A stretch of DNA of 64,000 nucleotides, taken from an uncultured Gaiellaceae bacterium. GTDB lineage: Bacteria > Actinomycetota > Thermoleophilia > Gaiellales > Gaiellaceae. Below the pieces are notes generated by a model that did not search any database, was not told the origin of the DNA, and was given only the letters and a program-made list of their open reading frames with translations. Where the stretch lies: NCBI GenBank assembly GCA_963770715.1, contig CAVYQX010000010.1, positions 19,138 through 83,137 on the forward strand, in the 5' to 3' direction. The first letter of the stretch is position 1. Every line of letters starts with the position of its first letter. Below are positions 3,529 to 19,495 of the stretch, in pieces. The position numbers and the translations under genes were made by a program.

Positions 3529-3564
3529 CGACGCCGATCCTCGTCTCGGGCTAGTGGCGCCGCA

Positions 3565-3581
3565 TCATCCGATCGGGATGA
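3565..3581. promoter_or_regulatory. Dyad motif copy A1: TCATCC GATCG GGATGA (perfect 6-5-6 palindrome)
   Basis: Read directly. It lies ~115 nt upstream of the ATG at 3697. Confidence 0.55.
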
Positions 3582-3610
3582 ATCGTCCCGCTCTCGCTGT
3601 GGCGCTGCGA

Positions 3611-3630
3611 TTCACCCACATCGGACGATG
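3611..3630. promoter_or_regulatory. Dyad motif copy A2 (degenerate): TTCACCCACATCGGACGATG
   Basis: Lies 46 nt after A1. It aligns with copy B2 (GAWTCACCC..TC.GGA.GATGTC). Confidence 0.4.
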
Positions 3631-3696
3631 TCGCTCCGTTGCTGACGCGCGAGCCTCTCCGCACCAACACCGATTCGTTCGAAAGGAGCAATTGCC

Positions 3697-4116
3697 ATGG
3701 CATCACAGGACGCGTGGAGCGGGTGGATCGTCTTCGGCGCCTTCGTGCTCATCATCATCGGGGCGATGGATGCGCTCCAGGGCGTTGTGGCGCTCTTCAG
3801 GGACGAGTACATCGTGGCGACGCCCAAGGGCGTTGCCCTCCTCGACATAACCGCGTGGGGATGGTGGACGCTCCTCTGGGGCGCGTTGCTCTTCTTCACG
3901 GGGCTCGCACTGCTCGGTGGGGCCGGCTGGGCTCGGTGGCTCGCCATCGTCGGCGTGGGCATCAGCGCGATCCAGCAGGTCGCCTTCATGGCGAACTACC
4001 CCCAGGCGTATCCCCTCTGGAACATCCTGATCGTGGCGCTCAGCGTGCTCGTGCTCTACGCACTCACCGCTCGCTGGCAGGGCTTCCAGGGCTCCGTCAG
4101 GGAATCCCAGGCCTGA
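3697..4116 (+). CDS. Small 4-TM membrane protein (DUF7144-like, common in Actinobacteria)
   Basis: ORF 139 aa: MASQDAWSGWIVFGAFVLIIIGAMDALQGVVALFRDEYIV...ITAWGWWTLLWGALLFFTG. RBS AAAGGAG lies 8 nt upstream. Confidence 0.7.
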   Translation: MASQDAWSGWIVFGAFVLIIIGAMDALQGVVALFRDEYIVATPKGVALLDITAWGWWTLLWGALLFFTGLALLGGAGWARWLAIVGVGISAIQQVAFMANYPQAYPLWNILIVALSVLVLYALTARWQGFQGSVRESQA

Positions 4117-4265
4117 CCGGGGACTCTGGACCGGATCGAGGGAGGCGGCGGTCTCAGCACTCCCTCGATCCGGCCCCGGTCCGGGGTGCGGTTGGGCGAC
4201 TGGGGCCGGTCGCTGCCGCTTGAGTCTAGCGGGCCGTCGGCCGAGCTCGCTGACCAGCGGGGCCG

Positions 4266-4946
4266 GGCTCACGGCTTCAGCCGCCGAGAAGAAGTCGAGT
4301 GCCTTGCGGGTCTTCGTCTCCTGCGCGCCGTCGAGATCGACGCCCTGCCCCGTGAGGAACGCCCGCGTCTCCGCGGCTGCCTGGAAGGCCTCGGCGGGGG
4401 CGCACTTGGTCGAGAGCTCGAGAATGCGCGAGCCGTCCGGGTAGAGCCACATCTCCGCGACCAGCCTGCGGTCGAACGCCTCCGGGGCGAACTTCAGCTT
4501 GAGGACGAAGATCGGGCCGAGAACCGAGAGGTCGTCGAGCGCGAGGCCCTCCGGAGCGTGCTCGGCGTAGAAGGCCCGCTGCTCCTTCGAGAAGAGCTTC
4601 TCGTCCGCCCTCCGCCCATGATCGTCTCTCGGACGTCCGCCTTCGGTACCCCCTTCAGCGAGCCCGAGCAGACGTAGCCACCGGGCATCGCGTCCACCTC
4701 GACGCCGAACTCGGGCAATTTGCGGACACCGCTCGGGAGCTGCGTCGGGACGACGGGGCGCAGCTTGACGACGGAGTCGTCGCCCTTCTTCTGCACGCGA
4801 CGGGCGCGAACGACCACGCCCTGCTCGTACAGCGTCAGGTCGGGGGTGTCGAAGAAGAACACCTGACGGATCTGGGCGTCGAGGGGATCGATCCTCAGCG
4901 CCGCGACCGTCGAGCTGTGCTCGGTCTCGGGGATCGTCAGCTTCAA
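4266..4946 (-). pseudogene. CYTH-domain protein; frame broken near 4612, both ends unclear
   Basis: ORF 4494..4946 (KLTIPETEHSSTVAALRIDPLDAQIRQVFFFDTPDLTLYEQGVVVRARR...) continues in the 3703..6648 frame (RADEKLFSKEQRAFYAEHAPEGLALDDLSVLGPIFVLKLKF...TKTRKALDFFSAAE). Homology (DSDSVELKL) extends upstream of 4946 with no start codon. Confidence 0.55.
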
Positions 4947-5029
4947 CTCGACGCTGTCGGAGTCCTTGATCAGTTCCAGTACGCGCGACGTCCTCGTCCG
5001 AGAGACGTGATTCGTGCTCGCGGGTTGCG

Positions 5030-6059
5030 GGCGACAGGTAGATCGCGCCGTAGGTGTACCGCAGCCGCTCGTCGAGCTGGCTGTAGTTCTCGGTCTCCTG
5101 GCTGGGCTTCACGAGGATCACAAACTCCCAGCTGGTGCCCGGAAACGGCGTCGGGTCGGTCGTGCGCTGGGAGACCTCGTACATCACGTTGCGTGCCATC
5201 GCGTCGCCGAGCGCGGCGGCCTCTTCGAGGATGGCCGTCTGCCGTGAGTCAGGCTCGAACGGCTTGCCCTTCTCGATGCCCAGCGGCTTGAGCATCGCCA
5301 TGAAGAAGCGGTCGTGCTCTTGAACGGGGTTGTTGTCGATGACCGTGGCGAGCCGCGCCCAGTACTCGATGCCTCCCGGGGGCGTGGTGTCGATCAGCGC
5401 GCCCGAGATCGAGACGAACTTGTTCGGCGTGGGGTTTCGCGCTCGCTCCACGGGTAGACCCTGCGTTTGCCGGACGCGCTCCACGGCGTCGGACACGTCG
5501 TCTTGTCGACGATGATGCCGCGGACCAGAAGATTGTGGTTGTGCATCGTGGCGTGAAGGACGTAGTAGCCGGACGCAGGAACCTCGCCGTCGTAGTCGGG
5601 CGGCAACAGCAGGAACGTGCCTCCCTTCCCCGCGTCGGGCCCAGGCAGGCCGACATCGGTGACCGAGCGCTGCCAGAAGTCGTCCAGTAGGCCCACGATG
5701 GCTCCGGGTGGGATCTCGATGGCGACCGGCTCGTCGGTCAGGTCGATGTTGACGAAGGCGTAGATCGTCGTGTCGTTCGCGGTCAGCCAGCCAGACTTCG
5801 GGTCGACGAAGTTGTCGGCGATCCCCAAGTCGTTGTAGTCGATGCCCAGGTCCTGCTTGGCCGTGACCCGAATGGACTCGAACGACACGGCGGGATAGCC
5901 CCACAGGTAGGCCTGCACCGCTCGCTGGAAGTCCATCTCGTCGAAGAGCTTCTGCGACGTTTCCGGGGTCGGGAAGCCCAGCTCGTACTGCAACGTGCCG
6001 ACACGTGGCACTTCCACGCTGGCTGCGATCGTGGCGTTTGGGTGTTCTACAACGGTCAC
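5030..6059 (-). pseudogene. DUF1254/DUF1214 family protein, copy 1; frame broken near 5505 and 3'-truncated
   Basis: ORF 5394..6059 (MTVVEHPN...FQRAVQAYLWGYPAVSFESIR...) continues in the 3703..6648 frame (DDVSDAVERVRQTQGLP...HDRFFMAMLKPLGIEKGKPFEPD...YGAIYLSPATR). Compared with copy 2, the last ~130 aa are missing. Confidence 0.65.
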
Positions 6060-6092
6060 TGACGTGCCCTCCCATCTTGTCCAGGTCGGCGA

Positions 6093-7645
6093 CTAGGTGA
6101 CAGGCTCGATCTCGCTCGGCCGCCAGGTCTTGTCGAAGAACGGCTGGAGCGGGTTGTAGAGCCTGAGAATCGTCCACCAACCCTTGCCGGGAACGGTCTG
6201 AAGCCAGTTGTCCTCCTTTCCTTCCGGCGCCTCCGGGCCGAAGTAGATGTCGGTCGAGCCGTCGGGGTTCGTCTCGACCGTCCCGGACTGGCTGCCGAGG
6301 CGCGGCAGGGGTTGATCCGTTTGCAGCATGGAGCGTGTCTGGCGGTCGTAGAGGATCACCGACCAGAAGCGGCTCTCGGGAACGTCGGGCGGAAGCGTGA
6401 GCCGGTAGTCGCGCGCGCCGTCGAGGTACTCGCCCTGGCTGTCGCGCATCGCGTAGATGTACTGCGAGCCGATGCCGGTGAGGCGCATGCACATCGCCGG
6501 TGTGATCCCGGTGGCCATGTAGAAGAAGTTGGTGCGGGAACCGAGCTTGCGGGCACCGTCGCTCGCGGCCGCGACCACGCCGTCCGCGGTGATCTGCGGC
6601 GGCGGATCGAGGAACTCGTAGCCACCGATGAAGAGCGCGCTCTCCCACGCCGAGCCCGGGTAGAAGGCGAAGCCCTCCTCGGGTCGTCCCGCGAAGAGGA
6701 CGGTACGGGCGGTGGCGTTGCCGACCTCGACCGCCTCTTCGAGGATCTTGCGCATTCGCGCGTCGGGCTCGAACGGCTTGCCGTGAACGATCCCGACGGA
6801 GGCAAGCAGGCCGAGCAGGTCCGGATCGCTCGCACCCGGCGGCTCCTGCTGCACGAGCTCGTCCACCAGCTCCCAGAACCCGAAGTCGTTCGGGTACACG
6901 GTGTTGAACGACTTGCCCGTCGCCTCGACGAAACGCGTCTCCGGCACCGGAGCGACCGCCCCCAACGGCGCTTCACCGGCGAGGAACGTGCCGACCGCCG
7001 TCCCTTGTGCACCCGGGACGTAGGGAGAGACACGAAAGCCGGTCCGGATCACTTCGACTGGGACCGTGGGATCGTTGTCGATCATGAACGCCCGGCCGAT
7101 CACGGTCGCGCGCGTCGTGCGAACGTGCGAGACGTGGAAGCCGCTGTCGGGCAGCGCCCCGTCGTAGCCTGGCCCCACCAAGAGATAGCGACCGCCCTGG
7201 CCGCGGTCCGGGCCGGACAGGCCGAAGTCCGTGACCCACCGGAACCACATGTCGTCGATGCGTCCCCAGGACCCCCGACGGCGCCTCGATCGACGGCACG
7301 TCGATCACCATCGGCCCGTCGGACAGGTCGACGAAACCCCAGAAGTAGACCGTGTCGCAGTTCGCGGTCAGGAACACCGACGCCGAACCCATCAGCTCCG
7401 GGAAGAACACGAAGTCGTTGTCCTCCGCCCCTATCGAGGCGTACCCGCGACGGATGGCAGCGAGCGATGCGCCCGGCAGCGCACCCAGGAACGCCTCGAC
7501 CCCGTGGACGAAGTCGAGATGGTCGTAGATCAGCGCGGCCGTCGCCTCCGATGGTGCGCCGTCGTCGAACTCGAGTGTTCCGAGCCGACGTCTCGACCTT
7601 GTCGGGCGTCGTGATCGAAGCCAGCATGTCCGCGGTCGTGCTCAT
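6093..7645 (-). pseudogene. DUF1254/DUF1214 family protein, copy 2; two frame breaks (about 7272 and 7587)
   Basis: AGGAGG RBS plus ATG at 7645 (MSTTADMLASITTPDKVET). Then RLGTLEFDDGAPSEATAALIYDHLDF...FFPELMGSASVFLTANCDTVYFWGF (frame of ORF 6973..7410). Then ORF 6093..7250 (MWFRWVTDFGLSGPDRGQGGRYLL...FWSVILYD...). Confidence 0.7.
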
Positions 7646-7729
7646 CCCCAGCACCTCCTAGGTGCGATTCGTTCCCGCACCTTCCGGGCGGGTCACGAGC
7701 AACGTATGCCTCGGCGGTTCCGACTCGCG

Positions 7730-7746
7730 TCATCCGGATCGGATGA
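7730..7746. promoter_or_regulatory. Dyad motif copy B1: TCATCC GGATC GGATGA (perfect palindrome)
   Basis: Read directly. It lies ~155 nt upstream of the ATG at 7884. Confidence 0.55.
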
Positions 7747-7796
7747 ATCTGGTCAGTCAACGGGTGTCGGTGGCGGCCCACGCCGCGAGACCGGTG

Positions 7797-7817
7797 AATC
7801 ACCCGGTCTGGATGATG
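7797..7817. promoter_or_regulatory. Dyad motif copy B2 (degenerate): AATCACCCGGTCTGGATGATG
   Basis: Lies 67 nt after B1 and aligns with A2. Confidence 0.4.
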
Positions 7818-7883
7818 TCCGACGCTCGCGGACCGGCCACGCTCGTGCCGTGATCGGCTACGGCGAGCTCCGGGGGTAGAGCC

Positions 7884-8985
7884 ATGAACGCGCGTACCCA
7901 AACTCGGAATCTGGTCCTGGAGCTTCGTGGGAGTCGTTGCGGCGACCGTGATCGTCGTGATCGCATTCGGCGCGGTGAGCGAGATCGTGCTTCCCCTGCT
8001 CTTCGCGGCCGTTCTCGCCGTCGATCTTCAAGCCGCTGGTCGGGAATCTCGAGCGCCGCGGGCTGAAGCCTACGCTCGGCGCCGGTCCTGTCGTTCTCGG
8101 CCTGCTCGCGCTGATGGCCCTGGTCGTGGTGGCCACCGTGCGCGGCGTGATCCAGCAGACCGACGGGATCGGTGACTCGGTCGACGCCGCCATGGAACAG
8201 GGCAGCGACGAGCTCGACGTCGACGAGGAAGCGCTGGAGGATGCCCGCGCGGCGGCGGAGGAGACGTCTGCTGCGGTCGCCGAGGGCTTCGTCACGAAGG
8301 TGGTCTCGGGCGTCGACGCGCTGATCGGCCTCGCCAGCGGCCTGATTCTCGGCTCGCTGATCATGTACTACCTGCTCAAGGACGGCACGAGCATCAGGCG
8401 CTCCGTCGTCTCGCAGTTCTCTCCCTCGATCCGGGACGAGGTCGACGCCTTCGTCACCGACGCGTGTCAGATCCTGCGCAGCTACGGGCGGGGCCGCACC
8501 GCGATGTCCGCGATCGTCTCGGTGGTCGTCGGCATCGCCAGCTTCCTGATGGGCCTTCCGCTCGTGTTCACGATCGTCGTCGTGAACTTCATCGGCGGCT
8601 ACATCCCGTACATCGGCGCCTTCCTCGGCGGCGGGCTGGCGGTGATCGTCGCCTACGGCGAAGGCGGGATCGGCCTGGCCGCCCTCATGCTCGTGGTGGT
8701 ACTCGCCGCGAACCTGCTGCTGGAGAACTTCGTCGAGCCGAGGGTGATGGGACGCACGCTCGACATCCACCCGATGCTCGTCATCATCGTCACGGCGCTC
8801 GGCGGGTTCCTGTTCGGCATCGTCGGCCTCCTACTCGCCGTGCCGTTCACCGTGATCGCCGGGAACCTCATCGGCCGCCTTCGCGCCGGAGGCTTCTTCA
8901 CGCTCGTGGCCGAACAAGCCGCAGCCGGCCATGAAGAAGATGCTCGACACACAGGGAAAGGAGAGCGCCTCGTGACCAGCTCTAA
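7884..8985 (+). pseudogene. AI-2E family transporter (PerM/UPF0118-like); frame broken near 8021 (and possibly near 7910); natural stop missing
   Basis: ORF 7927..8175 (GVVAATVIVVIAFGAVSEIVLPLLFAAVLAV) continues as IFKPLVGNLERRGLKPTLG in ORF 8114..9322 (...NFIGGYIPYIGAFLGGGLAV...ENFVEPRVMGRTLDIHPMLVIIV...). Homology ends by ~8940, but the frame stays open to 9322. Confidence 0.65.
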
Positions 8986-9314
8986 CGACCAGCCTTCCAA
9001 TTCATCTCCAACCTTCCCGAATCGATCTCGTCGACGGCCGGACTCGTCACGAGCGGCTGGAAGAAGTCGCGGATTGCGTGGATGTGGATCACGATCGCGC
9101 TCGTCTCTGGAGTCGCCTCGCTCGCCGGTTACGGCCTCTTCCAGAACTCCTCACCGGACACCGTCGCCTTCGTGCTCGCCTTCGCAGCGGGCGCATCCTC
9201 ACCATGCTCGCGGACACCACGATGCCCGAGGCGTTCCAGCACGGAGGCAAATTGGTCGGCGTCATGACGACGCTCGGCTTCGCGGTTGCGTACACCATCC
9301 ACGCGCTCGACTGA
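8986..9314 (+). pseudogene. ZIP-family metal transporter, C-terminal fragment only; frame broken near 9194
   Basis: AFQFISNLPESISSTAGLVTSGWKKSRIAWMWITIALVSGVASLAGYGLF...AFAAGA (ORF 9082..9267) then ILTMLADTTMPEAFQHGGKLVGVMTTLGFAVAYTIHALD (ORF 9078..9314). The N-terminal half of the family is absent, and a stop sits at 8983. Confidence 0.65.
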
Positions 9315-9328
9315 GGAGGTAGCTCGAG

Positions 9329-9775
9329 ATGGTCGGGGAGACACGATTCGAACGGCGACTCGAACGTTGGATCGACCGTGCAACGACACCGCGCGGCGCG
9401 GTCGCAGTGATCGCCACCGCGTCGATCGTCATCACCCTCGCGGCCGGCCTAGTGATGACGCTAGTAGACCGCGACAATTACCCGTCGATCGGAGAAGGGC
9501 TCTGGTGGGCCGTCCAGACGGTCACCACGGTCGGATACGGCGACGCCGTTCCGACGACGGTCTCGGGGCGGTTCGTCGCCGTAGTGGTGATGTTCTTCGG
9601 GATCGGCTTCCTGACCGTCATCACCGCCGCGATCACCAGCACGTTCGTCGAGCGCTCGCGCGTCGAGCAGGAGCAGGCGGAGCCCGCGACGCTGACGGTG
9701 GAGCACTTCCAGCAGCTCGATCGACGGCTCGAACGCATCGAAGCGGCCCTCGCCCGTTCCTCGTCCCTCGAGTAG
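9329..9775 (+). CDS. Two-TM potassium channel (KcsA-like pore)
   Basis: ORF 148 aa with selectivity filter TVGYGD (WWAVQTVTTVGYGDAVP). Confidence 0.85.
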   Translation: MVGETRFERRLERWIDRATTPRGAVAVIATASIVITLAAGLVMTLVDRDNYPSIGEGLWWAVQTVTTVGYGDAVPTTVSGRFVAVVVMFFGIGFLTVITAAITSTFVERSRVEQEQAEPATLTVEHFQQLDRRLERIEAALARSSSLE

Positions 9776-9852
9776 CTCCCAGGCAGCTTGCCCTTCGGTT
9801 CTCGCCGCCGCCGAGGAGCGCTCGAGCAGTCGAGCTGAGACGTGTGGGCGAA

Positions 9853-9875
9853 TTCATCCCGTCGGTATGAGGAAT
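9853..9875 (+). promoter_or_regulatory. Dyad motif copy C: TTCATCCCGTCGGTATGAGGAAT
   Basis: Lies 63 nt upstream of the ATG at 9938. It matches copy E at 21 of 23 positions. Confidence 0.55.
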
Positions 9876-9937
9876 GCGAGCACGTTCGCGCTCAGACTCC
9901 CACGGGACAGCGGGGTCCCACGACGGAAGAAGCGCAG

Positions 9938-10903
9938 ATGAGCGAAGACACTGCAGAGACGGTCGCCGCCACCGAGACCCGAGCGATCGAGCCGGAGGAC
10001 GGCTCTCGTGCGACCGCCCAAGCCCCGGTCAGTGATGGCGCGTCCGACGAGACCAAGAGCACGGCGACGAGTTCCAACGACGCGACCGACAGGCACATCG
10101 CGGTCGCTGTCCCGATCCGGGCAGTGGAGCGAAACAAGCGCGTTGCGGCAAGCGTTCTTGCCGGGGGAGTCGCGTACAAGGTGTTCCTGTGGCTGCTGCC
10201 CTTCGGCCTCATCGTCGGAGGCGCGCTTGGCCTCTCGAACGCAGATGACGCCGAGGACGCGGCCGCGGGCGGCGGGATACCGGGCGCGATCAGCAACGCG
10301 ATCGGGGATGCTGCGCGCTCGGCCGATTCCGAGTCGTGGTGGCTCTTCGCGGTTGGCGTGCCGCTCCTCCTGTGGGCAGGATTCACAGGGGCCAAGGCGG
10401 TTCAGCTCGTCCACGCTCTCGTCTGGGATGAAGCTCCACCGAAACCCAAACCGCTCCAGGCGTCTCTTGCCTTCACTGGCATGGCGTGTGCGGCGATCGC
10501 TGTCGTGGCAGTTGCTGCGCGGCTCGGCGACGAGAGATGGCAGAGCCTCCTCGCCTCCGCGCTGACCATCGCACCGATCGCTGGGCTATGGCTCTGGGCC
10601 TCACTTCACCTTCCCCATCGCGACGCTCCTTGGAAAGCACTGCTACCGGGCGCGCTCCTCGTCGCGATCGGATTCGAAGTGCTTCACGAGGTCGTCGACA
10701 CGTTCCTCGTGTCCCAGCTGGAGGACGCGACCGCGCTGTACGGCGCTCTCGGAGCTGTGACGACGTTCATCTTCTTCATTTACGTCCTCGCGCTGCTCGT
10801 CGTGAGCGCGCCCATTCTCAACAGCTCGATCTACGAGGAGCTACAGGTCAGGCGCGACGACGTTGATGACGCGATGACGACCGAGATCGCCCCAACGGCA
10901 TGA
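9938..10903 (+). CDS. YihY/BrkB family membrane protein
   Basis: ORF 9842..10903; internal start MSEDTAE. It has ERNKRVAASVLAGGVAYKVFLWLLPFGL... and multi-TM C-terminal FFIYVLALLVVSAPILN. Confidence 0.75.
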   Translation: MSEDTAETVAATETRAIEPEDGSRATAQAPVSDGASDETKSTATSSNDATDRHIAVAVPIRAVERNKRVAASVLAGGVAYKVFLWLLPFGLIVGGALGLSNADDAEDAAAGGGIPGAISNAIGDAARSADSESWWLFAVGVPLLLWAGFTGAKAVQLVHALVWDEAPPKPKPLQASLAFTGMACAAIAVVAVAARLGDERWQSLLASALTIAPIAGLWLWASLHLPHRDAPWKALLPGALLVAIGFEVLHEVVDTFLVSQLEDATALYGALGAVTTFIFFIYVLALLVVSAPILNSSIYEELQVRRDDVDDAMTTEIAPTA

Positions 10904-10964
10904 GGCCGGGATCGATCGACATGTGATCGTGCCCAAGTGAACACGACCTACAAAGGAGCCCACA

Positions 10965-13332
10965 TTGAGCCCTGATCGCCATGCCCGCACGATGTTGCCG
11001 ATCCCCGACCGGCCGGCCCCGGGTCTGATCACCTACGACGCGAAGGATCCGGATACGTCGTTTCCACCGATCGAGCCGCTGCTGCCGCCCGAGGGGGCAC
11101 CGAACGTCCTCATCGTGCTCGTCGACGATGTCGGCTTCGGGGCGTCGAGCGCGTTCGGCGGGCCATGCGCAACGCCGAACGCCGAGCGGCTGGCAGCAGG
11201 CGGGCTGCGCTACAACCGCTTTCACACGACGGCGCTGTGCGCGCCCGACTCGGCAGGCGCTGCTGTCCGGGCGCAACCACCACTCGGTCGGTATGGGCTC
11301 TATCACCGAGACGGCGACATCGGCGCCGGGGAACAGCTCGCTTCGTCCGAACACGAAGGCGCCGCTGGCGATGACTCTGAAGTTGAACGGCTACTCGACG
11401 GCTCAGTTCGGCAAGTGCCACGAGGTGCCGGTGTGGCAATCGTCCCCCATGGGACCGTTCGACGCATGGCCCTCGGGCGGTGGCGGCTTCGAGAAGTTCT
11501 ACGGGTTCATCGGCGGCGAGAACAACCAGTGGGATCCGGCGCTGTACGACGGCACGACGCCGATCGAGCCGCCGGCGACCGAGGAGGAGGGATACCACCT
11601 CACGGAGGATCTCGCGGACCACTGTGTCAGTTGGATTCGTCAGCAGAAGGCGCTGATGCCGGACAAGCCGTTCTTCATCTACTTCGCGCCCGGTGCGACG
11701 CACGCGCCGCACCATGTGCCGAAGGAGTGGGCGGACAAGTACCAGGGCCAGTTCGACGACGGCTGGGACGCGCAGCGCGAGCGAACGTTCGCCCGCCAGA
11801 AGGAGCTGGGCGTCATCCCGGAGGACGCCGAGCTGCCCGCCCGGCACGACGTGATCCCGGCCTGGGACGAGATGCCCGACGAGCTGAAGCCGGTGCTCGC
11901 GCGCCAGATGGAGGTCTACGCCGGTTTCCTCGAGCACACCGACCATCACGTCGGCCGCCTGATCGACGCACTCGAGGACCTTGAGATCCTCGACGACACG
12001 ATCGTCTACTACATCATCGGCGACAACGGCGCCTCTGCCGAAGGCACCCTGCAGGGGGCGTTCAACGAGATGGCCAACTTCAACGGCATGGCCGAGCTCG
12101 AGACCCCGGAGTTCATGATCTCCAAGATGGACGAGTTCGGCTCACCGAGCTCGTACAACCACTACGCGGTCGGCTGGTCGTGGGCGATGAACACGCCCTT
12201 TCAGTGGACCAAGCAGGTCGCTTCGCATTGGGGCGGCACCCGCAACGGGACGATCGTGCACTGGCCCAGCGGGATCGAGGAGAAGGGTGGTCTCCGCTCG
12301 CAGTTCTCCCACGTCATCGACGTGGCTCCGACGATCCTGGAGGCCGCCGGGCTCCCCGAGCCCGCGATGGTGAACGGCGTGACGCAGTCGCCGATGGAAG
12401 GCACGAGCATGGTGTACTCGTTCAACGACGCCGAGGCCGACGAGCGCCACGACCTGCAGTACTTCGAGATGTTCGGCAACCGCGGCGTCTACCACAGGGG
12501 CTGGAGCGCCGTCACCAAGCACAAGACGCCCTGGGTCATGGTCGGCGGCAAGATGCCTGCGTTCGACGACGACGTGTGGGAGCTCTACGACGGCAGCAAG
12601 GACTTCAGCCAGGCTCACAATCTCGCGGCCGACGACCCGGAGATGCTCGCCAAGCTACAGCGCCTGTGGCTCATCGAGGCGACGAAGTACAACGTGTTGC
12701 CGCTCGATGACCGCAGCGCGGAGCGCCTGGAGCCGACGACCGCGGGTCGGCCGACGCTCATCCGGGGCAACTCGCAGCTCTTCTTCGCGGGCATGGGACG
12801 CCTGTCGGAGAACAGCGTCGTGAGCATCAAGAACAAGTCGTTCTCGGTCACTGCGGAGGTTGACGTCCCCGACGGTGGTGTGAGCGGCGTGATCATCGCG
12901 CAGGGCGGCCGCTTTGGCGGCTGGACCGTCTACTTCAAGGACGGCACGGCCAAGTTCGTCTACAACACGCTCGGCATCCACACATACGCCACCACTGCGG
13001 ACACCGCGATCCCGAGCGGCGCGCATCAGGTGCGTATGGAGTTCGCGTACGACGGCGGTGGGCCGGCCAAGGGCGGCGACGTCACCCTGTACTACGACGG
13101 CAAGGCGGTCGGAAACGGCCGGGTCGAGCACACGCACCCGATGATCTTCTCCGCCGACGAGACGACCGACATCGGCGAGGAGACCGGCACGACCGTCACC
13201 CCGGACTACACCGCCCGGGACAGTCGATTCACCGGAAAGATCAAGTGGGTGCAATTGGACGCCGGTACCGACGATCACGACCACTTCATCGAGCCCGAGG
13301 AGCGTCTCCGCATCGCGATGGCTAGGCAATAG
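10965..13332 (+). pseudogene. Arylsulfatase (formylglycine-dependent); frame broken at ~11247 inside the C-x-P-x-R active-site motif
   Basis: TTG 10965 with [30 protein letters not shown]...[10 protein letters not shown] (ORF 10965..) then [18 protein letters not shown]... (ORF 11128..13332). The sequence reads TGC GCG CCC GAC TCG; one C fewer would restore CAPTR. Confidence 0.85.
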
Positions 13333-13336
13333 CGCG

Positions 13337-13549
13337 ATGGCGATGGCGGTCGACGTTCAGCGGCTCGAACGGGGGGACGTCGTCCTCGTAGACCTTGACG
13401 ATGGCTCGGGGGAGGTCGAGGCCAAGGTGGTGCGCCCGATCGATCGCACCGAAACGTCCGTGCGCGTCTCGCTCCGAGTAGAGGGGCGCGAGGAGTTCGT
13501 GAAGGAGTGGGACCTCGGCGAGCAGGTGATCGTCGTGCGCGGCCCCTGA
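13337..13549 (+). CDS. Hypothetical small protein (70 aa)
   Basis: ORF only; G/C-rich third positions; no recognisable motif. Confidence 0.35.
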   Translation: MAMAVDVQRLERGDVVLVDLDDGSGEVEAKVVRPIDRTETSVRVSLRVEGREEFVKEWDLGEQVIVVRGP

Positions 13550-13563
13550 GACGGGCGCCTAGT

Positions 13564-14571
13564 TCACTCGGCCTCGGCCTGGTCGCCCGCTCGCTTGGGC
13601 GCTGATGCGCGCACGACGCACCGGAAGCCGAGGTGCGTCGTCGACGAGTCGATGGCCTGTCCCTGTCGCGCGGCCGGTCTATAGCGGAGGCAGTAGCTCG
13701 GTGCGCAGAGGTGTGAGCCGCCCTTGATCACTCGACGCGGGAGCGCCTCACCGGGTATGGCCTCGGGCGACGAGACCCGCGGGTTGCGCGGCACGCAGCA
13801 CGGGCTCTCCACCTCGTCCGGGTGGCGCTGCGTGAACCAGTCCGACGTCCACTCCCAGACGTTTCCGGTCATGTCGTGCAAGCCGTATCCGTTCGGTGGG
13901 AACGTGGCGACCGGCGACGTCCCCGCGTAGCCGTCGAGCTCGAGGTTCTGCCAGGGGAACTCGCCCTGCCACGTGTTGGCCATGGCCCGGCCGTCTGGGA
14001 AGTGCTCGTCACCCCAGGCGAACGCCGCACCTTCGAGGCCGCCGCGTGCCGCGTACTCCCACTCCGCCTCGCTCGGGAGCTCCTTTCCCGCCCAGGCCGC
14101 GTAGGCGTCCGCATCCTCGTAGGCGACGTGCACAACCGGATGGCGGTCGCGGCCGTTGACCGACGTTCCCTTCCCACCCGGCCGCTTCCAGTACGCGCCA
14201 GGGACGTACTCCCACCAGTTGCGGTGGTCGTTCAGGTCGACCGGGCCGGTGGTAGCGCGAAAAATGAGGGAGCCGGGCACGAGCAGCTCGGGATCGGCGT
14301 CGGGATAGAGCGCCCCGTCGAGCGGCCGCTCGGCCAGCGTCACGTACTTCGTCTCACGGACGAACTGGCGGAACTGCGCCGCCGTTACCGGTGTCTCGTC
14401 CATCCAGAGCCCGTCGACCGAGACACGATGGATCGGGCGCTCCTCGGGATAGAAGTCCTCGGAGCCCATCGCGAAGGTGCCCGCCGGGATCCAGCGCATG
14501 CCCGGGGCAGGAGGCGGGCCGATGTCGGGAGTGGGGGTGGCTGCCGAAAGGTCGCGCGGCCTCGCGGACAC
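13564..14571 (-). CDS. Formylglycine-generating enzyme (SUMF1/FGE family sulfatase maturase)
   Basis: ORF 335 aa: MRWIPAGTFAMGSEDFYPEERPIHRVSVDGLWMDETPVT...NVWEWTSDWF...GGSHLCAPSYCLRYRPAARQ. Confidence 0.85.
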   Translation of the reverse strand: MSARPRDLSAATPTPDIGPPPAPGMRWIPAGTFAMGSEDFYPEERPIHRVSVDGLWMDETPVTAAQFRQFVRETKYVTLAERPLDGALYPDADPELLVPGSLIFRATTGPVDLNDHRNWWEYVPGAYWKRPGGKGTSVNGRDRHPVVHVAYEDADAYAAWAGKELPSEAEWEYAARGGLEGAAFAWGDEHFPDGRAMANTWQGEFPWQNLELDGYAGTSPVATFPPNGYGLHDMTGNVWEWTSDWFTQRHPDEVESPCCVPRNPRVSSPEAIPGEALPRRVIKGGSHLCAPSYCLRYRPAARQGQAIDSSTTHLGFRCVVRASAPKRAGDQAEAE

Positions 14572-14784
14572 GGTGCCTCCTAGTCGAGCTGCGGTGTCTC
14601 GCGCGCGACGATACCCCGCAGCAGGCCGACGACGACAGGCGCGATCACGTCTCCGTCACCGAACCGTCACGTACCGGTGCGAGGTCGCGTCGGTGCGGGC
14701 AGATGGGCTCACGCCGGCTCCGGACTCGGGCGCCGTAGTCGTGCCAGCCCGTCGTGGTTTCCGTCGTGGCAATGGACCTCGTCC

Positions 14785-14970
14785 TCAGTACGCCGCGACT
14801 GCGGCGGTCCTGTCCGAGACCATGTACGCGACGATCAGCGCGGCAGGGAAGAAGACCAGGCTGAAGACGAAGTACCAGAAGAAACTGTGTCCCTTTCGGG
14901 CGGCAACGCGAGCCGGCCAGAATGCGATCGCAATCCAGATGATCGCGGCCAGAATCGACCAAAGAACCAT
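14785..14970 (-). CDS. Hypothetical small 2-TM membrane protein (61 aa)
   Basis: ORF MVLWSILAAIIWIAIAFWPARVAARKGHSFFWYFVFSLVFFPAALIVAYMV. Confidence 0.4.
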   Translation of the reverse strand: MVLWSILAAIIWIAIAFWPARVAARKGHSFFWYFVFSLVFFPAALIVAYMVSDRTAAVAAY

Positions 14971-15061
14971 CTCCTACCTCCGATGTAGTGGTGCGTCTCC
15001 GCTCGGTCCGAGCGGTCACGTCAGCCGCCCCTCCGAAGAGGAGCGGCTCCCGTGAGCGCTG

Positions 15062-15400
15062 TTACTGGTTGTCCTGCTCCTCCTGCTCCTCGTACTCCGC
15101 GATCTCGATCGCGACCTCGAGCGCGTCGGCGATCTTGCCCGTGGCGGAGGCGACGCGCGCAGTCCCGACGATTGGTGCAATCGCGGCCAAGACACCGCGC
15201 ACCTGCTCGGCGTCGACGCCGATCTGGCTCGCAGCACCGATGTTCAGCAGGTACGAGACCGCGGGCGCGTCGACCGCGGCGAGCGCCGCGATGCGAACGA
15301 GCATCAGCGTCTCCGCGTCGAGGCTCGATGCCTCGAGGGAGTCCGCGGTCATGCTTGCCAGCAGATCGAGGACCGGTGTATCGGTGGTCGATTCGGACAT
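15062..15400 (-). CDS. Carboxymuconolactone decarboxylase (CMD/AhpD-like) family protein
   Basis: ORF 15062..15547; likely start MSESTTDTP at 15400 (RBS GAAAGGAAGG). It has LMLVRIAALAAVDAPAVSYLLNIGAA...GVLAAIAPIVGTARV. An in-frame ATG at 15481 inside motif D is an alternative start. Confidence 0.65.
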   Translation of the reverse strand: MSESTTDTPVLDLLASMTADSLEASSLDAETLMLVRIAALAAVDAPAVSYLLNIGAASQIGVDAEQVRGVLAAIAPIVGTARVASATGKIADALEVAIEIAEYEEQEEQDNQ

Positions 15401-15472
15401 ATGCCTTCCTTTCGGTCGACGGTCGTTCCAGGTCACACGGAACGGCGCAGTATTGGCGCTCCGCGCATCCGG

Positions 15473-15496
15473 GTTCCTCATACCGATGGCATGAAA
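15473..15496 (-). promoter_or_regulatory. Dyad motif copy D (minus-strand reading TTTCATGCCATCGGTATGAGGAAC) in the divergent CMD/LuxR intergenic region
   Basis: The copy read directly covers 15473-15496. A further half-site GTATGAGGAGGAC on the + strand lies just downstream at 15505-15517, outside these coordinates and ~50 nt before the LuxR ATG. Confidence 0.55.
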
Positions 15497-15568
15497 TGAG
15501 GGGCGTATGAGGAGGACGGGTCGTTTACCCGGTGTCGTTGTGGGCAATTAACTAGGGTCTCTCTTGGC

Positions 15569-17845
15569 ATGGCGACCGTGCAGGCGCCTTTCGACCTCGT
15601 CGAGGTCAAACTCAGTGCGCCGTTCAAACGGGCCGGCACGCTGTCGAAGGCGGACCTGATCGCACGACTACGCCGTGCAAGCGCGCGATTCGTGAGCGTG
15701 GTCGCGCCGGCCGGGTATGGCAAGACAACCTTTCTCGCCCACTGGGCCGAGGCGGATCCGCGCTCGTTTGCGTGGGTGGCGCTCGACGGGCGAGACGACG
15801 ACCCGTTGGTTCTCCTGCGGTACATCGCGGCCGCGATCCATCGGGTCAAGTCCGTGCCATCCACGGTGTTCGATGCGCTGTCGGGTCCCGGGGCTTCCAC
15901 GCGACCGCTGCTCGTCTCGCTCGTCGGAGGCGCACTAGCCGAAGGTGAAGGCTCGACGGTGATCGTGCTCGACGATTTGCACCTGGTTGGCAATCCGTCT
16001 TGTCTGGACGTGCTCGCGGAGCTCTTCGGGTACGTCCCTGCCGGGTCGGCGATCGCGATTGCCAGCAGGGAGGAGCCGCAACTCCCGCTTGCCCGCTGGC
16101 GCGCGCAGGGACTGGTGCACGAGATCGGCGTCGACGAGCTGCGGCTGGACGAGCAGGAGGCCGCGTCGGTGCTGGACGACGTAGGAGTCGAAATCGACGC
16201 AAGCGAGCTCTCCGAGCTGACGGCGCGGACCGAGGGCTGGGCGGCCGGGTTGTATCTCGCGGGACTTGCGCTGCAAGCCGGCGGAACCCGCCCGGCGAGC
16301 GACTCCGTGTTGAGGTTCACGGGCGACGACAGGTTCGTATCCGACTACTTCCGGTACGAGCTCCTGTCACGGTTGCCCGCCGAGGAGAAGCAGTTCCTGA
16401 CGCACACCTCGGTCCTCGATCGCATGTGCGGCGGCCTCTGCGATGCGGTGCTGGAGACGAAGGATTCAACGAAAATGCTTCAGCGGCTCGCGCGGACGAA
16501 CGGCTTCGTCGTGCCCCTCGACCGGCGGAGTGAGTGGTATCGCTATCACCACCTGTTCGGCCAGCTTCTGCGGGACGAGCTCGAGCGGAGCGAGCCGGAT
16601 GTGGTTGGTGCCCTCAACCGCCGTGCCATGGACTGGTGCATCGCAAATGACTCGCTAGAGGAGGCGATCTCGTACGGCCATGTCGCGGGCGAGACGAGCA
16701 CCGTCGCCGGCTTGGTCGACTCACTCGCCCTGGCTGTTCACTACGACGGCCGCATGGAGACCTTGGAGGAGTGGCTGTCGTGGTTCGGCGAAGACGAGCT
16801 CGTCAACTATCCCGCGCTCGCGGTCTACGGAGCGTGGGTGCGCGCACTCACCGGGAGGCCGGTCGACGCTGAGCGGTTGCTGGCACTTGCGGACGGGGCG
16901 CCTTCGGCGATCCCACTCTCGGACGGCAGCCCCACGATCGACCCCTGGGTTGCCACTCTGCGGGCCCACATGATGGCGAATGGGGTCGACAAAGCGTTGG
17001 CAGACGCCAACACTGCGCTCGAGCAACTCCCTCCGGACAGCGTCTGGATCACGACAGCGACGCTTGCGCGCGGCGTTGTGCACGCGCTGCTCGGCGCAAC
17101 GGATCGTGCGACGGACGACCTCACCGCAGTCGTCGCGCTGGCGCAGGCACGTGGCGCGCCCGAGGAGGGCTACCTGGCGCAAGGACAGCTCGCACTTCTC
17201 GCCGCCAGACGAGGCGCCTGGCACGAGGCACGGCAACGCGCCGACGCGGCACAGGCATTCGTCGACGAGTACGGACTCGGCGACGTGTCGTCGAGCGCGC
17301 TCGCGCATGTCGCGACCGCCCGCGTCGCACTCCATGAGGCAAGGCATGCGGATGGTCACGCCTCGCTGGCACGCGTTCATCGTCTGCGCCCTATGCTCGA
17401 TCAGGGCCTTCCGTGGGTGACCATCGAGGTCGGGCTCGAGCTCATACGCGCCCATCTCGCTCTCGGCGAGTCGACCGCCGCACGCACGATTCTCACCGAG
17501 ACCGACCGAGTGCTCTCGCTCCGCCCGGACATGGGCTTCCTCGTAGAGGACGCGCGACTGCTGCGCGAGCAGGTGTCGGCGACCGAAGGACCGGCCGGCG
17601 CGTGGGCAATGAGCTTGACGGGCGCCGAGCTTCGGCTCCTTCCCTACCTCGCGACGCATCTCACGTTCCCGGAGATCGCGACCAGGCTGTTCATCTCGCG
17701 CAATACGGTCAAGACCGAAGCGGTCTCGATCTACCGCAAGCTGACGGCTTCTTCGCGCAGCGAGGCGATCGAGCGTGCCGTCGAAGTGGGGCTCCTGGAG
17801 GGTTCGATCTACCCGCCGCGGGCAAATCTCACCCAGGAAGGATGA
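15569..17845 (+). CDS. Large ATP-binding LuxR-family (LAL/MalT-like) transcriptional regulator
   Basis: Intact 758-aa ORF. N-terminal P-loop region VVAPAGYGKTTFLAHW, a long helical repeat middle, and a C-terminal LuxR HTH LTGAELRLLPYLATHLTFPEIATRLFISRNTVKTEAVSIYRKL. Confidence 0.85.
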   Translation: MATVQAPFDLVEVKLSAPFKRAGTLSKADLIARLRRASARFVSVVAPAGYGKTTFLAHWAEADPRSFAWVALDGRDDDPLVLLRYIAAAIHRVKSVPSTVFDALSGPGASTRPLLVSLVGGALAEGEGSTVIVLDDLHLVGNPSCLDVLAELFGYVPAGSAIAIASREEPQLPLARWRAQGLVHEIGVDELRLDEQEAASVLDDVGVEIDASELSELTARTEGWAAGLYLAGLALQAGGTRPASDSVLRFTGDDRFVSDYFRYELLSRLPAEEKQFLTHTSVLDRMCGGLCDAVLETKDSTKMLQRLARTNGFVVPLDRRSEWYRYHHLFGQLLRDELERSEPDVVGALNRRAMDWCIANDSLEEAISYGHVAGETSTVAGLVDSLALAVHYDGRMETLEEWLSWFGEDELVNYPALAVYGAWVRALTGRPVDAERLLALADGAPSAIPLSDGSPTIDPWVATLRAHMMANGVDKALADANTALEQLPPDSVWITTATLARGVVHALLGATDRATDDLTAVVALAQARGAPEEGYLAQGQLALLAARRGAWHEARQRADAAQAFVDEYGLGDVSSSALAHVATARVALHEARHADGHASLARVHRLRPMLDQGLPWVTIEVGLELIRAHLALGESTAARTILTETDRVLSLRPDMGFLVEDARLLREQVSATEGPAGAWAMSLTGAELRLLPYLATHLTFPEIATRLFISRNTVKTEAVSIYRKLTASSRSEAIERAVEVGLLEGSIYPPRANLTQEG

Positions 17846-17888
17846 GGCGAAAGCTAAGCGGCTTGAGGTCGGATGTGTGCCGACCCCA

Positions 17889-18224
17889 ATGGACGCGTAC
17901 AAGGAGCACCTCCGTCGGCTCGCCGTGCACGACGACGCCTTCGTCAGCCTGCTTCTCGGAGAAGAGGAGAACTCGTCGATTACCTCGGTCCTCGACGCGA
18001 AGACCGCGGCACTCGTGCGCATCGCCGCGACGATTGCGGTCGATGCGGCTCCCTCGTCGTTTCAACACGCGATATCGCACGCCCTCGGCTGCGGGGCAAC
18101 CTGTGGCGAGGTCGTCGCGACCCTCGAGGCAGTTGCACCGGTAACGGGTGCGGCGCGAGTAGTCGGATCCGCGCCGAAAGTCGCACTCGCGCTCGGCTAC
18201 GACGTCGAGGATGCGCTCGAGTGA
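17889..18224 (+). CDS. Carboxymuconolactone decarboxylase (CMD/AhpD-like) family protein, second copy
   Basis: ORF 17775..18224; start MDAYKEHLRRL. It has TAALVRIAATIAVDAAPSSFQHAISHALGCGATCGEVVATLEAVAPVTG. Confidence 0.65.
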   Translation: MDAYKEHLRRLAVHDDAFVSLLLGEEENSSITSVLDAKTAALVRIAATIAVDAAPSSFQHAISHALGCGATCGEVVATLEAVAPVTGAARVVGSAPKVALALGYDVEDALE

Positions 18225-18267
18225 CCAACGGCTCCCGGAGAGCCCACGACCACGACAGGGAGGAACG

Positions 18268-18760
18268 ATGCCGGACGTGCCTGTAAGCCTGTACATCGCG
18301 ACCTATTCCGATCCGAACGCCGCCCAGCAGGACTGGGACGGCATCAAGCAGCTCGCCCGCGACGGTGTGATTCGTGGACGGCCTCGTTCTCGTCAGCCGC
18401 GACGCCGACGGGAAGATCGATGTGAAGGACAACGCCCACGACTTTGGCAGGGGAGCCGCGCTCGGTGCGGTCGGCGGCGCGATCGTCGGCCTCATCTTCC
18501 CGCCGGCCTTCCTTGCGTCGGCCGTCGTCGGCGCTGGCGTCGGAGCGGGCGCAGGGGCAATGCTCGACCGCCACGACAAGAACGAGATCAAGGCCGACGT
18601 CGAAGACGTGCTTCCGCCCGGCAGCTCCGGGATCGTCGCGCTGTTCGAGGAGCAGTGGGTCGCGGACGTCGAGAATGCGTTGGCGAACGCCGACAACTCG
18701 ACCACGCACGAGGTCGACAGCAAGAGCGCCGAGCAGGTCAAAGCGGCCGCGACGGGCTAG
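18268..18760 (+). pseudogene. DUF1269-like membrane protein; frame broken near 18371
   Basis: MPDVPVSLYIATYSDPNAAQQDWDGIKQLARDGVI (ORF 18211..) then VDGLVLVSRDADGKIDVKDNAHDFGRGAALGAVGGAIVGLIFPP... (ORF 18374..18760). Confidence 0.6.
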
Positions 18761-18942
18761 GGCGATTCATCCAGATTCGACGAATGCCTTCGGCTCCGGC
18801 GCGAATGGGGGTCCCTGTCTTGAACCAACGGACAGGAGTCTCCCGAGCCGCGCGTTACGACCGGAAACGGCATGCATGTTTGCGACGCGAACGGGGTAGC
18901 GAAGACATCGACCCCTTTCGCGGAAGGAGGGCGCGAGCCTCC

Positions 18943-19335
18943 GTGCCAGCGACGGTCGATGCGTTCTTGGACCAGTACGTCCGTTGGTACTCGGAGGGAG
19001 ATGTGGAGGGTGCGACCGAAGTCTGTGTTGTGCCCTTTGTCGCGGTCAGGGACGGCGTGGAGATCCACCTGCCGGACCGCGACGCTGTGCGCGACCACGT
19101 GGCAGCGGTGACCGACGCGTTTCGCGCGGACGGTGTCGCAACGTGGACACGAATCGAGACCGAGCTCAACGAACTCGGCGACCACACCATCTTCGCGACC
19201 GTGCGCTGGAACGGACTCGATTCGGAGGGTGAGGTACTCCGCGAGATCAGCACGACCTACCACCTTCTTCGGACACGCGACGGCATGCGCTTCGTGTCGT
19301 ACACGAATCACTTCACGGGGGCACCGGGCCAGTAG
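18943..19335 (+). CDS. SnoaL/NTF2-like fold protein (hypothetical)
   Basis: Tail of ORF 18211..19335: VPATVDAFLDQYVRWYSEGDVEGATEVCVVPFVAV...TIFATVRWNGLDSEGEVLREISTTYHLLR. The GTG start is a guess. Confidence 0.45.
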   Translation: MPATVDAFLDQYVRWYSEGDVEGATEVCVVPFVAVRDGVEIHLPDRDAVRDHVAAVTDAFRADGVATWTRIETELNELGDHTIFATVRWNGLDSEGEVLREISTTYHLLRTRDGMRFVSYTNHFTGAPGQ

Positions 19336-19472
19336 CCCTCGCGGCCACTACTCCCCGCGTCAGCGGAACTCCGTCCGGCCAAGCACCTGTGTCATCAGCG
19401 CGACGTCCCCTCTCGCTTGTTCGAAGCACCATGGCGGCGCAACCGCCTGCCTGCTCGTGCCGATGGCCAATT

Positions 19473-19495
19473 TTCATCCCATCGGTATGAGGAAC
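19473..19495 (+). promoter_or_regulatory. Dyad motif copy E: TTCATCCCATCGGTATGAGGAAC
   Basis: Lies 78 nt upstream of the DedA ATG at 19573. Confidence 0.55.

Follow-up and report, generated by a model that had tools for sequence, protein, structure and literature searches.

A TCATCC-N5-GGATGA dyad as the probable binding site of a MalT-family LuxR regulator, marking a compact regulon of mostly membrane proteins in an uncultured Gaiellaceae bacterium

Within a 64,000-nt stretch of contig CAVYQX010000010.1 from an uncultured Gaiellaceae bacterium (assembly GCA_963770715.1), hereafter the window, a short inverted repeat of the form TCATCC-N5-GGATGA recurs around the gene for a large ATP-binding LuxR-family (LAL) regulator and upstream of genes that encode mostly membrane proteins. 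We interpret this dyad as the DNA binding site of the neighbouring regulator, a MalT-family activator of the STAND/LuxR type, and as the mark of a compact regulon; on the sequence evidence assembled here, this reading has a probability of roughly 0.8. The LAL is favoured as the binder because it is a MalT-family protein, because the half-site carries the core of the MalT box, because genetic data from Actinoplanes point to a regulator of the same type, and because the sites cluster at the regulator gene in ten genomes. The pairing of regulator and motif is already known, having been published for Actinoplanes in 2020, and the present case is a further instance of it. The new elements are modest: an extension to Thermoleophilia and Streptosporangiales, asymmetric flanks of the dyad, sites that contain a stop codon, leaderless targets, and a pair of CMD-like genes that flank the regulator.

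Results

The dyad is recurrent and clustered

Positions are counted from the first letter of the window, and L001-L009 denote nine orthologous loci. Four exact copies of TCATCC-N5-GKATGA occur in the window, at 3565, 7730, 9854 and 19474, against none in 100 dinucleotide-preserving shuffles of it, so that the repeated dyad reported in the original prediction is real. The copies at 3565 and 7730 are perfect palindromes, as had been claimed, and the 23-mers at 9853, 15473 (reverse complement) and 19473 had been quoted correctly. A search allowing one mismatch adds 7799, 15478 (minus strand) and 17829. We also built a symmetric weight matrix from 71 regular-expression matches in the window and the nine related loci; at a cutoff of at least 14 bits it returned ten window matches (3565, 3612, 7730, 7799, 9854, 10887, 15478, 17829, 18767 and 19474), with 0.3 expected from dinucleotide shuffles. 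To avoid circularity, an independent matrix was derived from the nine other loci alone, with the window excluded. This matrix regained the same nine strong sites, left the copy at 18767 with 11.9 bits, and gave no further window match of 10 bits or more across the 64 kb, in agreement with the earlier statement that the other 44 kb hold no copies. Every one of the nine strong sites and the one weak site lies between 3565 and 19490, and the remaining 44 kb of the window are devoted to unrelated housekeeping functions; the clustering of the sites within 3.5-19.5 kb is real. Two sites, 10887-10903 and 17829-17845, had not been listed before.

The 69 sites in the ten genomes (the window and the nine loci) have the consensus TCAYSC-N5-GKAYGA. 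Sixty of them fall in DNA that is not called coding, in sequences of which about 70% is called coding, and none lies inside a coding sequence. At the other nine, the site centre is exactly 8 nt from the 3' end of a gene, and the terminal TGA of the motif is the stop codon of that upstream gene. Both newly listed window sites are of this kind, one covering the stop codon of the YihY gene (10901-10903) and one that of the regulator (17843-17845); the claim that all copies are intergenic was thus nearly right, but did not hold for these two, which overlap gene 3' ends. The same overlap is seen in L001-L004 and L006 at 12233-12271, and in L002 and L008 at about 7898. Because the last TGA of the motif is the stop codon, the C-terminal residues of the regulator (LTQEG*, LHPEG* or FHPEV*, for example) are encoded by the site of the next promoter.

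The sites occupy a fixed position at putative promoters

The flanks of the dyad differ between its two sides. The distal side usually reads (g)aTTTCAYSC, equivalent to GGATGA followed by aat on the opposite strand, and on the proximal side GKATGA is followed by gga, cga, tgc or cgc. On the proximal side, defined by a flank not beginning with A, position +24 is an A in 52% of cases and position +28 a T in 73%, each against a background of about 14%; no such signal at +24 and +28 was found on the distal side. In most sites the proximal side, and it alone, has a -10-like hexamer of the actinobacterial type nAnnnT that begins 22 nt from the motif, with CAGACT, CATACT, TAGGCT, TAGGGT and GAGGAT as examples, and no -35 hexamer is conserved across the sites. 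If transcription starts about 7 nt past the hexamer, the dyad would span about -51 to -35 with its centre near -43, a geometry that, as far as these positions can tell, is that of a class II activator promoter. At several promoters the start codon lies only 6-10 nt past the -10, which suggests that several of the mRNAs are leaderless.

Each perfect palindrome had been noted to be followed, 46-67 bp later, by a second, alignable site. These second sites are real (3612 with 18.8 bits, 7799 with 24.3 bits), but their pairing is that of two divergent promoters: 3565 faces a minus-strand membrane-protein gene and 3612 the DUF7144 gene, while 7730 faces a DUF1254/DUF1214 gene and 7799 the AI-2E transporter gene. 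One large palindrome, or a cooperative double operator, was considered for the paired sites and rejected, since a separate -10-like hexamer, 22 nt away, and a separate gene belong to each site. In L001, the dyad at 3137-3153 has the proximal-type flank (tgc) on both sides and -10-like hexamers 22 nt away on both sides, with genes beginning 67 and 68 nt from its centre; here a single dyad may serve two divergent promoters.

The regular distance to the -10 region, together with the flank GGAAC/T at three window sites, which resembles the -35 of extracytoplasmic function (ECF) sigma factors, could also be read to mean that an alternative sigma factor of that type uses the motif, or just its proximal half, as its -35 element. 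We consider this very improbable. The GGAAY flank is not conserved across sites or loci, which show gga, cga, tgc or cgc, and the conserved part is a two-fold symmetric 17-mer that extends to about -51, far past any -35 element. Moreover, the -10 conforms to the generic nAnnnT found at housekeeping promoters of actinobacteria, and no gene for a sigma or anti-sigma factor is conserved in the cluster, either in the window or in the nine loci.

The same placement bears on an alternative raised in the original prediction, namely that the dyad is transcribed and acts as an RNA hairpin with a 6-bp stem, serving as a leader structure or as a protein-binding RNA. The two perfect palindromes of the window would suit such a hairpin, as would the 13 of 61 distinct sites that could form a 6/6 stem, but those 13 are also the only perfect stems among the 61, and the two arms do not covary: pairing at the variable mirrored positions is 0.72, 0.57 and 0.56, compared with 0.75, 0.60 and 0.58 under independence, and T/C at position 4 shows no association with A/G at position 14 (Fisher p 0.74). 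Because the motif lies upstream of the -10, with the start codon only 6-10 nt past the -10 in several cases, it would not be transcribed from these promoters. Sites also occur in either orientation relative to the plus strand, and an Rfam search of the whole window at gathering thresholds gave only a tRNA at 61683 and nothing at the dyad sites. On these grounds the hairpin can be given next to no credence.

The neighbouring regulator belongs to the MalT family

The regulator gene (15569-17845, plus strand) encodes a protein of 758 aa composed of a P-loop nucleotide-binding oligomerization domain (NOD), an arm, a TPR-like sensor and a C-terminal LuxR/GerE helix-turn-helix (HTH) domain, with Pfam matches to GerE, TPR_MalT, AAA_16 and AAA_22. 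Residues 10-421 match the E. coli MalT structure 8BOB with an E value of 1.6e-39, in a PDB comparison that covers the N-terminal 420 aa of MalT, and BLASTP against MG1655 MalT gives 28% identity over 524 aa (E 1e-42) with the same Walker A sequence, PAGYGKTT. The NCBIfam MalT model NF003420 scores 283.6 bits over model positions 2-569 and does not reach its equivalog cutoff of 537. Because this score is well below the cutoff, we class the protein, from its sequence, as a member of the MalT family of STAND proteins and not as an orthologue of the enterobacterial maltose activator. Matches to the regulator number 6,400 proteins at E <= 1e-10, and the best 120 are all at least 69% identical to it and come mostly from metagenome sources.

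Among the Thermoleophilia orthologues the HTH domain is 84-91% identical, compared with 51-80% for the whole protein, as would be expected if the domain recognises a conserved DNA target. The recognition helix of the motif-associated regulators shares the pattern T-[VI]-K-T/S with E. coli MalT, and LAL homologues without the motif have R or A at those positions; in both cases the sample is very small, and the apparent tracking of the motif by this pattern is only a hint.

A site in the promoter region of the regulator itself had been given as the reason for naming the LAL as the binder, and this argument is weak. The site (site 7, below) instead faces the divergent CMD-like gene, lying 23 nt from the hexamer AATACT, and its distance to the start codon of the regulator varies between 46 and 86 nt among orthologues. 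Because of this orientation and this variable distance, autoregulation through the dyad is not supported by the sequences compared. A -10-like TAGGGT stands 10 nt before the ATG of the regulator (15553-15571), leaving a very short leader, and TAGGAT or TAGGGT hexamers likewise precede the orthologues; the promoter of the regulator looks independent of the dyad. A half-site at 15505 that was said to face the LuxR gene does exist, but it is not conserved in the orthologous loci. As a candidate promoter element of the LAL gene it was rejected on that ground and for its distance of 42 nt, not 22, from the TAGGGT. At locus L005, a motif-driven K+ channel gene may share its transcript with the regulator gene.

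Sites accompany the regulator in related and distant genomes

Orthologues of the regulator, 51-80% identical to it, were found in nine metagenome-assembled genomes (MAGs) of Thermoleophilia (Solirubrobacterales, Thermoleophilaceae; Microflora Danica), and the nine orthologous loci span 18.7-22 kb each around the regulator gene. A weight-matrix scan like the one proposed in the original prediction gave 3-9 sites of at least 14 bits in every one of these loci, against at most 0.13 expected, and no site, whether in the window or in L001-L009, is more than about 12 kb from the regulator gene. Conservation at orthologous positions, another check proposed there, is also evident: a site is present in the intergenic region upstream of the regulator in seven of the nine loci, and on or just after the regulator stop codon in eight. 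In L007, near-duplicate sites occur in inverted order (8676/19878, 9898/18754 and 12345/16347), along with a second, frameshifted copy of the HTH region of the regulator at 16452-16676 (minus strand); either the locus has undergone an inverted duplication or the assembly is at fault.

Outside Thermoleophilia, a tblastn search of PLSDB identified a LAL in Nonomuraea gerenzanensis (Streptosporangiales) with 32% identity over 93% of the query. The surrounding 42 kb hold five sites of at least 14 bits against 0.17 expected, mostly of the form TCACCC-N5-GGGTGA, and genes for AI-2E, DUF7144 (twice) and DUF1269 each have a site upstream. Two tandem LAL genes are present at this locus, as in the Actinoplanes cluster. 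The locus (L011; NZ_LT559118.1, 8.08-8.13 Mb) belongs to an 11.85-Mb record that is listed as a plasmid in PLSDB and is evidently a chromosome. As a negative control, LAL homologues on plasmids of Deinococcus, Streptomyces, Chlorohelix and Acaryochloris, 30-36% identical, were examined, and none has a dyad within 12 kb.

The same motif, 5'-TCATCC-5 nt-GGATGA-3', has been described in Actinoplanes sp. SE50/110, where 17 mapped transcription starts of a "maltose-regulated large genomic region" with 51 genes have it across their -35 region (Droste et al. 2020, PMC7567727). Its 3' end is 34.4 +/- 1.0 nt from the transcription start. Deletion of the MalT-like LuxR gene ACSP50_3915 lowers the expression of 42 of the 51 genes and overexpression raises that of 39, and the authors, who matched the motif to the E. 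coli MalT box GGGGA(T/G)GAGG with its core GGA(T/G)GA, also found it in four other Micromonosporaceae (PMC7567727). Our literature search returned no specific report on LAL binding sites in Thermoleophilia.

The LAL as the probable binder of the dyad

The proposal that the dyad is an operator for a dimeric regulator, with the LAL as candidate, is the best-supported reading as far as the protein is concerned; the word operator, which implies repression, fits less well, as both the promoter geometry and the Actinoplanes genetics point to activation. Several observations weigh against the LAL, or limit how far it can be pressed. The window regulator is just 32% identical to the Nonomuraea LAL and 28% identical to E. 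coli MalT, and its recognition helix, NTVKTEAVSIYRKL, differs at several positions from that of E. coli MalT, TTIKTHIRNLYQKL. The clusters of Actinoplanes and Nonomuraea contain two LAL genes each, and sequence does not settle which paralogue binds. For Actinoplanes itself, binding was deduced from the motif and the genetics in the portions of the report used here (PMC7567727), and the transcription starts assumed for the window derive from -10-like hexamers. Finally, should the frameshifts seen in several targets (see below) prove genuine, decay of the regulon could be under way in this genome.

Some of these points would suit another transcription factor, encoded elsewhere, with the LAL only a co-located member of the regulon or an indirect actor. 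The consulted portions of the literature contain direct evidence of LAL binding in no species, the site in the LAL intergenic region is placed for the divergent gene and not for the LAL gene, and the LuxR-type HTH has only generic residues in common with E. coli MalT. Against such a factor, no other regulator gene is conserved in the window cluster or was seen in the target clusters of the nine loci, and in three actinobacterial orders the sites are found together with LALs of this subfamily. Furthermore, the half-site is the core of the MalT box footprinted for E. coli MalT (as cited in PMC7567727), and deletion and overexpression of the Actinoplanes gene shift the motif-bearing genes in opposite directions (PMC7567727). 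We regard a different binder as unlikely.

The sign of regulation is not readable from sequence alone, and a site that overlaps the -35 can also repress, which would make the dyad a repressor operator at which the regulator blocks RNA polymerase over the -35 until an inducer releases it. We judge repression to be a good deal less probable still. The rigid spacing to the -10 (22 nt in most sites) and the lack of a conserved -35 are what activator-dependent promoters typically show, the STAND proteins of the MalT family act as activators (PMC4381067), and in Actinoplanes deletion lowers and overexpression raises the target transcripts (PMC7567727). Activation by the LAL, as opposed to repression, is what we infer from this geometry and by analogy with the Actinoplanes deletion and overexpression strains; binding by the LAL, the transcription starts and the nature of the signal are likewise put forward as probable and not as observed.

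Sites of the window and their predicted target genes

Site 1 (3565-3581, minus strand) is a perfect palindrome of 27.6 bits whose proximal side points leftward. Its putative -10, GAGGAT at 3537-3542, is 22 nt away, and the ATG at 3528 follows 8 nt further, which suggests a leaderless or nearly leaderless transcript; the predicted target is a frameshifted gene for an LPG_synthase_TM-like membrane protein (2322-3528, minus strand). Site 2 (3612-3628, plus strand; 18.8 bits), with GAGCCT at 3651-3656, is predicted to drive the DUF7144 gene at 3697-4116. DUF7144 genes with a site were counted eight times across the loci, in addition to Nonomuraea.

Site 3 (7730-7746, minus strand), the other perfect palindrome, scores 24.4 bits, also has its proximal side leftward and stands before TACGTT at 7701-7706 and a frameshifted DUF1254/DUF1214 gene (6093-7645, minus strand), its predicted target; the homologues of this gene in L006 and L008 likewise have a site. 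Site 4 (7799-7815, plus strand; 24.3 bits), with CACGCT at 7838-7843, is predicted to serve the frameshifted AI-2E transporter gene at 7884-9322 and probably also the K+ channel gene at 9329-9775. Site 5 (9854-9870, plus strand; 27.2 bits) has CAGACT at 9893-9898 and, as predicted target, the BrkB/YihY-family gene at 9938-10903, at the end of which lies site 6 (10887-10903, plus strand; 17.9 bits). The latter is the least certain of the strong sites; a -10-like hexamer, GATCGT, is found 21 nt downstream of it, and its probable target is a frameshifted sulfatase gene (10965-13332).

Site 7 (15478-15494, minus strand; 26.9 bits) lies between the LAL gene and the divergent CMD-like gene at 15062-15400 (minus strand), its predicted target, with AATACT at 15449-15454. 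Site 8 (17829-17845, plus strand; 19.9 bits) has TCGGAT at 17869-17874 and is predicted to drive the CMD-like paralogue at 17889-18224 and probably also the DUF1269 gene at 18374-18760. Site 10 (19474-19490, plus strand), with 28.2 bits and CAGACT at 19513-19518, precedes the DedA/VTT-domain gene at 19573-20343, its predicted target. A weak copy reported near 18766 is indeed present, at 18767-18783 (no strand assigned) upstream of an NTF2-like gene (18943-19335), with 14.6 bits, or 11.9 bits with the independent matrix; nevertheless, both of its flanks are of the distal type and no -10-like hexamer is found at 22 nt, and its function is doubtful.

Across the window and the nine loci, the families encoded behind sites include DUF1269, AI-2E, BrkB/YihY, DUF2252 and diacylglycerol kinase, as well as DUF7144, DedA/VTT, CMD-like, DUF1254/DUF1214, PAP2, bestrophin-like, K+ channel, glutamate-decarboxylase-like and other proteins. 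The description of some targets as redox genes was weakly founded, as the CMD match reaches 21.1 bits against a Pfam cutoff of 23.

The two CMD-like proteins (15062-15400, minus strand; 17889-18224, plus strand) are paralogues of about 110 aa with 44% identity (E 4e-13) and a resemblance to CMD/AhpD that stays below the Pfam cutoff; they border the regulator gene and each has its own dyad. Both copies are present in L001, and one or the other was detected in L002, L003, L006 and L007. In the middle of the window cluster lie the sulfatase gene (10965-13332, plus strand) and a gene for a formylglycine-generating enzyme (FGE-sulfatase; 13564-14571, minus strand), and neither family is on the list of the Actinoplanes regulon. 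At least six genes in 2322-13332 are readable only through a frameshift, namely the LPG_synthase_TM-like gene (2322-3528, minus strand), a CYTH-like gene (about 4220-4946, minus strand), a second DUF1254/DUF1214 gene (about 5000-6059, minus strand), the DUF1254/DUF1214 gene at 6093-7645 (minus strand), the AI-2E gene (7884-9322, plus strand) and the sulfatase gene (10965-13332, plus strand). Either indel errors from long-read sequencing of the MAG or genuine gene decay would account for these frameshifts. Elsewhere in the window, a MoxR AAA+/DUF58/VWA-BatA cluster of the aerotolerance-operon type (45550-50113) carries no dyad sites and is unrelated.

Discussion

A proposed model of regulon activation

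By analogy with MalT, the sensor domain of the regulator would detect an inducer, upon which the NOD would open, ADP would be exchanged for ATP and the protein would multimerise in an ATP-dependent manner (PMC4381067). Two LuxR-type HTH domains could then occupy the two inverted GGATGA-type half-sites, whose centres are 11 bp apart and would thus be presented on one face of the helix. Situated at about -51 to -35, the site would take the place of a -35 hexamer, and, as in class II activation, the bound protein would bring RNA polymerase holoenzyme carrying the housekeeping sigma factor to a weak promoter whose sole core element is a -10 (nAnnnT). Every target promoter carries a site of its own, divergent gene pairs carrying two, and several of the transcripts would be leaderless or nearly so.

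Significance of the proposed regulon

The window offers a testable regulon for an abundant uncultured soil lineage, comprising a regulator, a site model, a promoter anatomy and about ten target operons. The Actinoplanes "maltose-regulated region" is no family-specific curiosity, as three orders from two classes of Actinomycetota have its motif, geometry and core targets; their presence in Thermoleophilia and Streptosporangiales argues against an island restricted to Micromonosporaceae. The core targets common across Actinomycetota are DUF1269, AI-2E, YihY and DUF7144, and this breadth suggests that the physiological role of these membrane proteins has been conserved and argues against one specific to the metabolism of acarbose or maltose. 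The match of both the half-site and the -10 distance to E. coli MalT suggests an activator-promoter geometry that is deeply conserved, with the content of the regulon fully replaced.

A broader reading can be put forward tentatively, at less than even odds. According to it, the LAL and the set of TCATCC-N5-GGATGA sites form an ancient regulon that has been vertically conserved across Actinomycetota (Thermoleophilia, Streptosporangiales and Micromonosporales) and is not the horizontally spread Micromonosporaceae island proposed in 2020. It would govern membrane and ion homeostasis through channels, AI-2E, YihY, DedA, DUF1269, DUF7144 and lipid-modifying enzymes, in response to a signal other than maltodextrin, and the CMD-like paralogues would perhaps be co-sensors or modulators of the regulator, a part that MalY, MalK and Aes play for E. 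coli MalT. If this were true, recognition of GGATGA and the geometry overlapping the -35 would predate the split between Actinomycetota and Proteobacteria.

Comparison with known systems

The quorum-sensing activators of the LuxR/TraR type are class II activators whose lux-box dyad is centred near -42.5. They resemble the proposed system in that a dimeric LuxR-type HTH protein sits on a dyad that overlaps or replaces the -35, the centre here being estimated at about -43. In contrast, the regulator of the window has no acyl-homoserine-lactone binding domain, would receive its signal through a STAND ATPase, and is paired with a different half-site sequence. The cluster-situated LALs of Streptomyces (PikD, MilR, SCO0877/SCO7173; PMC3282765, PMC5015266) are likewise large ATP-binding LuxR-family activators of neighbouring genes; however, they control secondary-metabolite clusters, whereas no biosynthetic genes are found here, and the LAL of a Streptomyces plasmid, at 34% identity, has no dyad nearby.

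E. coli MalT is closer. The two proteins share the STAND architecture, significant similarity over the NOD and arm, and an identical Walker A, and activation of MalT requires multimerisation and cooperative binding (PMC4381067). The core GGATGA of the E. coli and Klebsiella MalT boxes, 5'-GGGGA(T/G)GAGG-3', equals the half-site seen here, which takes the forms GGATGA, GTATGA and GGGTGA. In the malPp promoter of MG1655, GGATGAGGAAG is followed after 22 nt by CAAACT, with the same spacing and the same flank as in the window; the proximal MalT box itself reads gcaGGATGAGGAAGg, again with CAAACT after 22 nt, and from its position CAAACT is probably the functional malPp -10. Sites 9854 and 19474 show this spacing together with the GGA(A) flank (GGTATGAGGAAt/c, then 17 nt, then CAGACT), and the proximal E. 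coli box, GGATGAGGAA, can be set beside the proximal form found here, GGTATGAGGAA, both 22 nt from a -10-like hexamer. The arrangement differs in that the malPp boxes are dispersed, a proximal box and an upstream pair about 30 nt away (CTCATCCCC and CTCCTCCC, in inverted orientation), whereas each promoter in the window has a compact 6-5-6 inverted repeat. MalT is also longer, at 901 aa compared with 758 aa and a shorter sensor here, and the targets here are not genes for maltodextrin uptake or catabolism, with no mal genes among those of the window.

The nearest counterpart is the Actinoplanes regulon (PMC7567727). There are differences. The present host is from another class, Thermoleophilia, represented by MAGs of uncultured soil bacteria, and has a smaller cluster with a single LAL gene where Actinoplanes has two. 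The regulator stands between two CMD-like paralogues, and the targets include DUF7144, DedA, DUF1254/DUF1214, a K+ channel and a sulfatase, while the arginine deiminase operon, peptidases and glucosidase/amylase genes of Actinoplanes are absent. The asymmetric flanks (distal ATTTCA; proximal TGA followed by gga, cga or tgc), the stop-codon sites and the leaderless targets seen here are not mentioned for Actinoplanes in the sections of the report that were considered.

The likenesses are more extensive in the features that define the system. The consensus is identical, and the end of the motif is about 34-35 nt from the transcription start in both, if the starts here are estimated from 22 nt, the -10 hexamer and about 7 nt. 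In both, a MalT-like LuxR gene lies inside a cluster of motif-bearing promoters, and the targets encode mostly membrane proteins of unknown role, with no maltose-utilisation gene among them. The published gene table (PMC7567727, Table S3/S4) lists DUF1269 (twice), AI-2E transporter, diacylglycerol kinase and DUF2252 homologue genes, along with BrkB/YihY twice (ACSP50_3918 and 3931), and all five of these families are also found among the targets here. With the regulators matched by type and not by sequence, we consider the dyad and its LAL to be the same system in another class of Actinomycetota, because the two agree in the motif and its placement, in the kind of regulator and in at least five target families.

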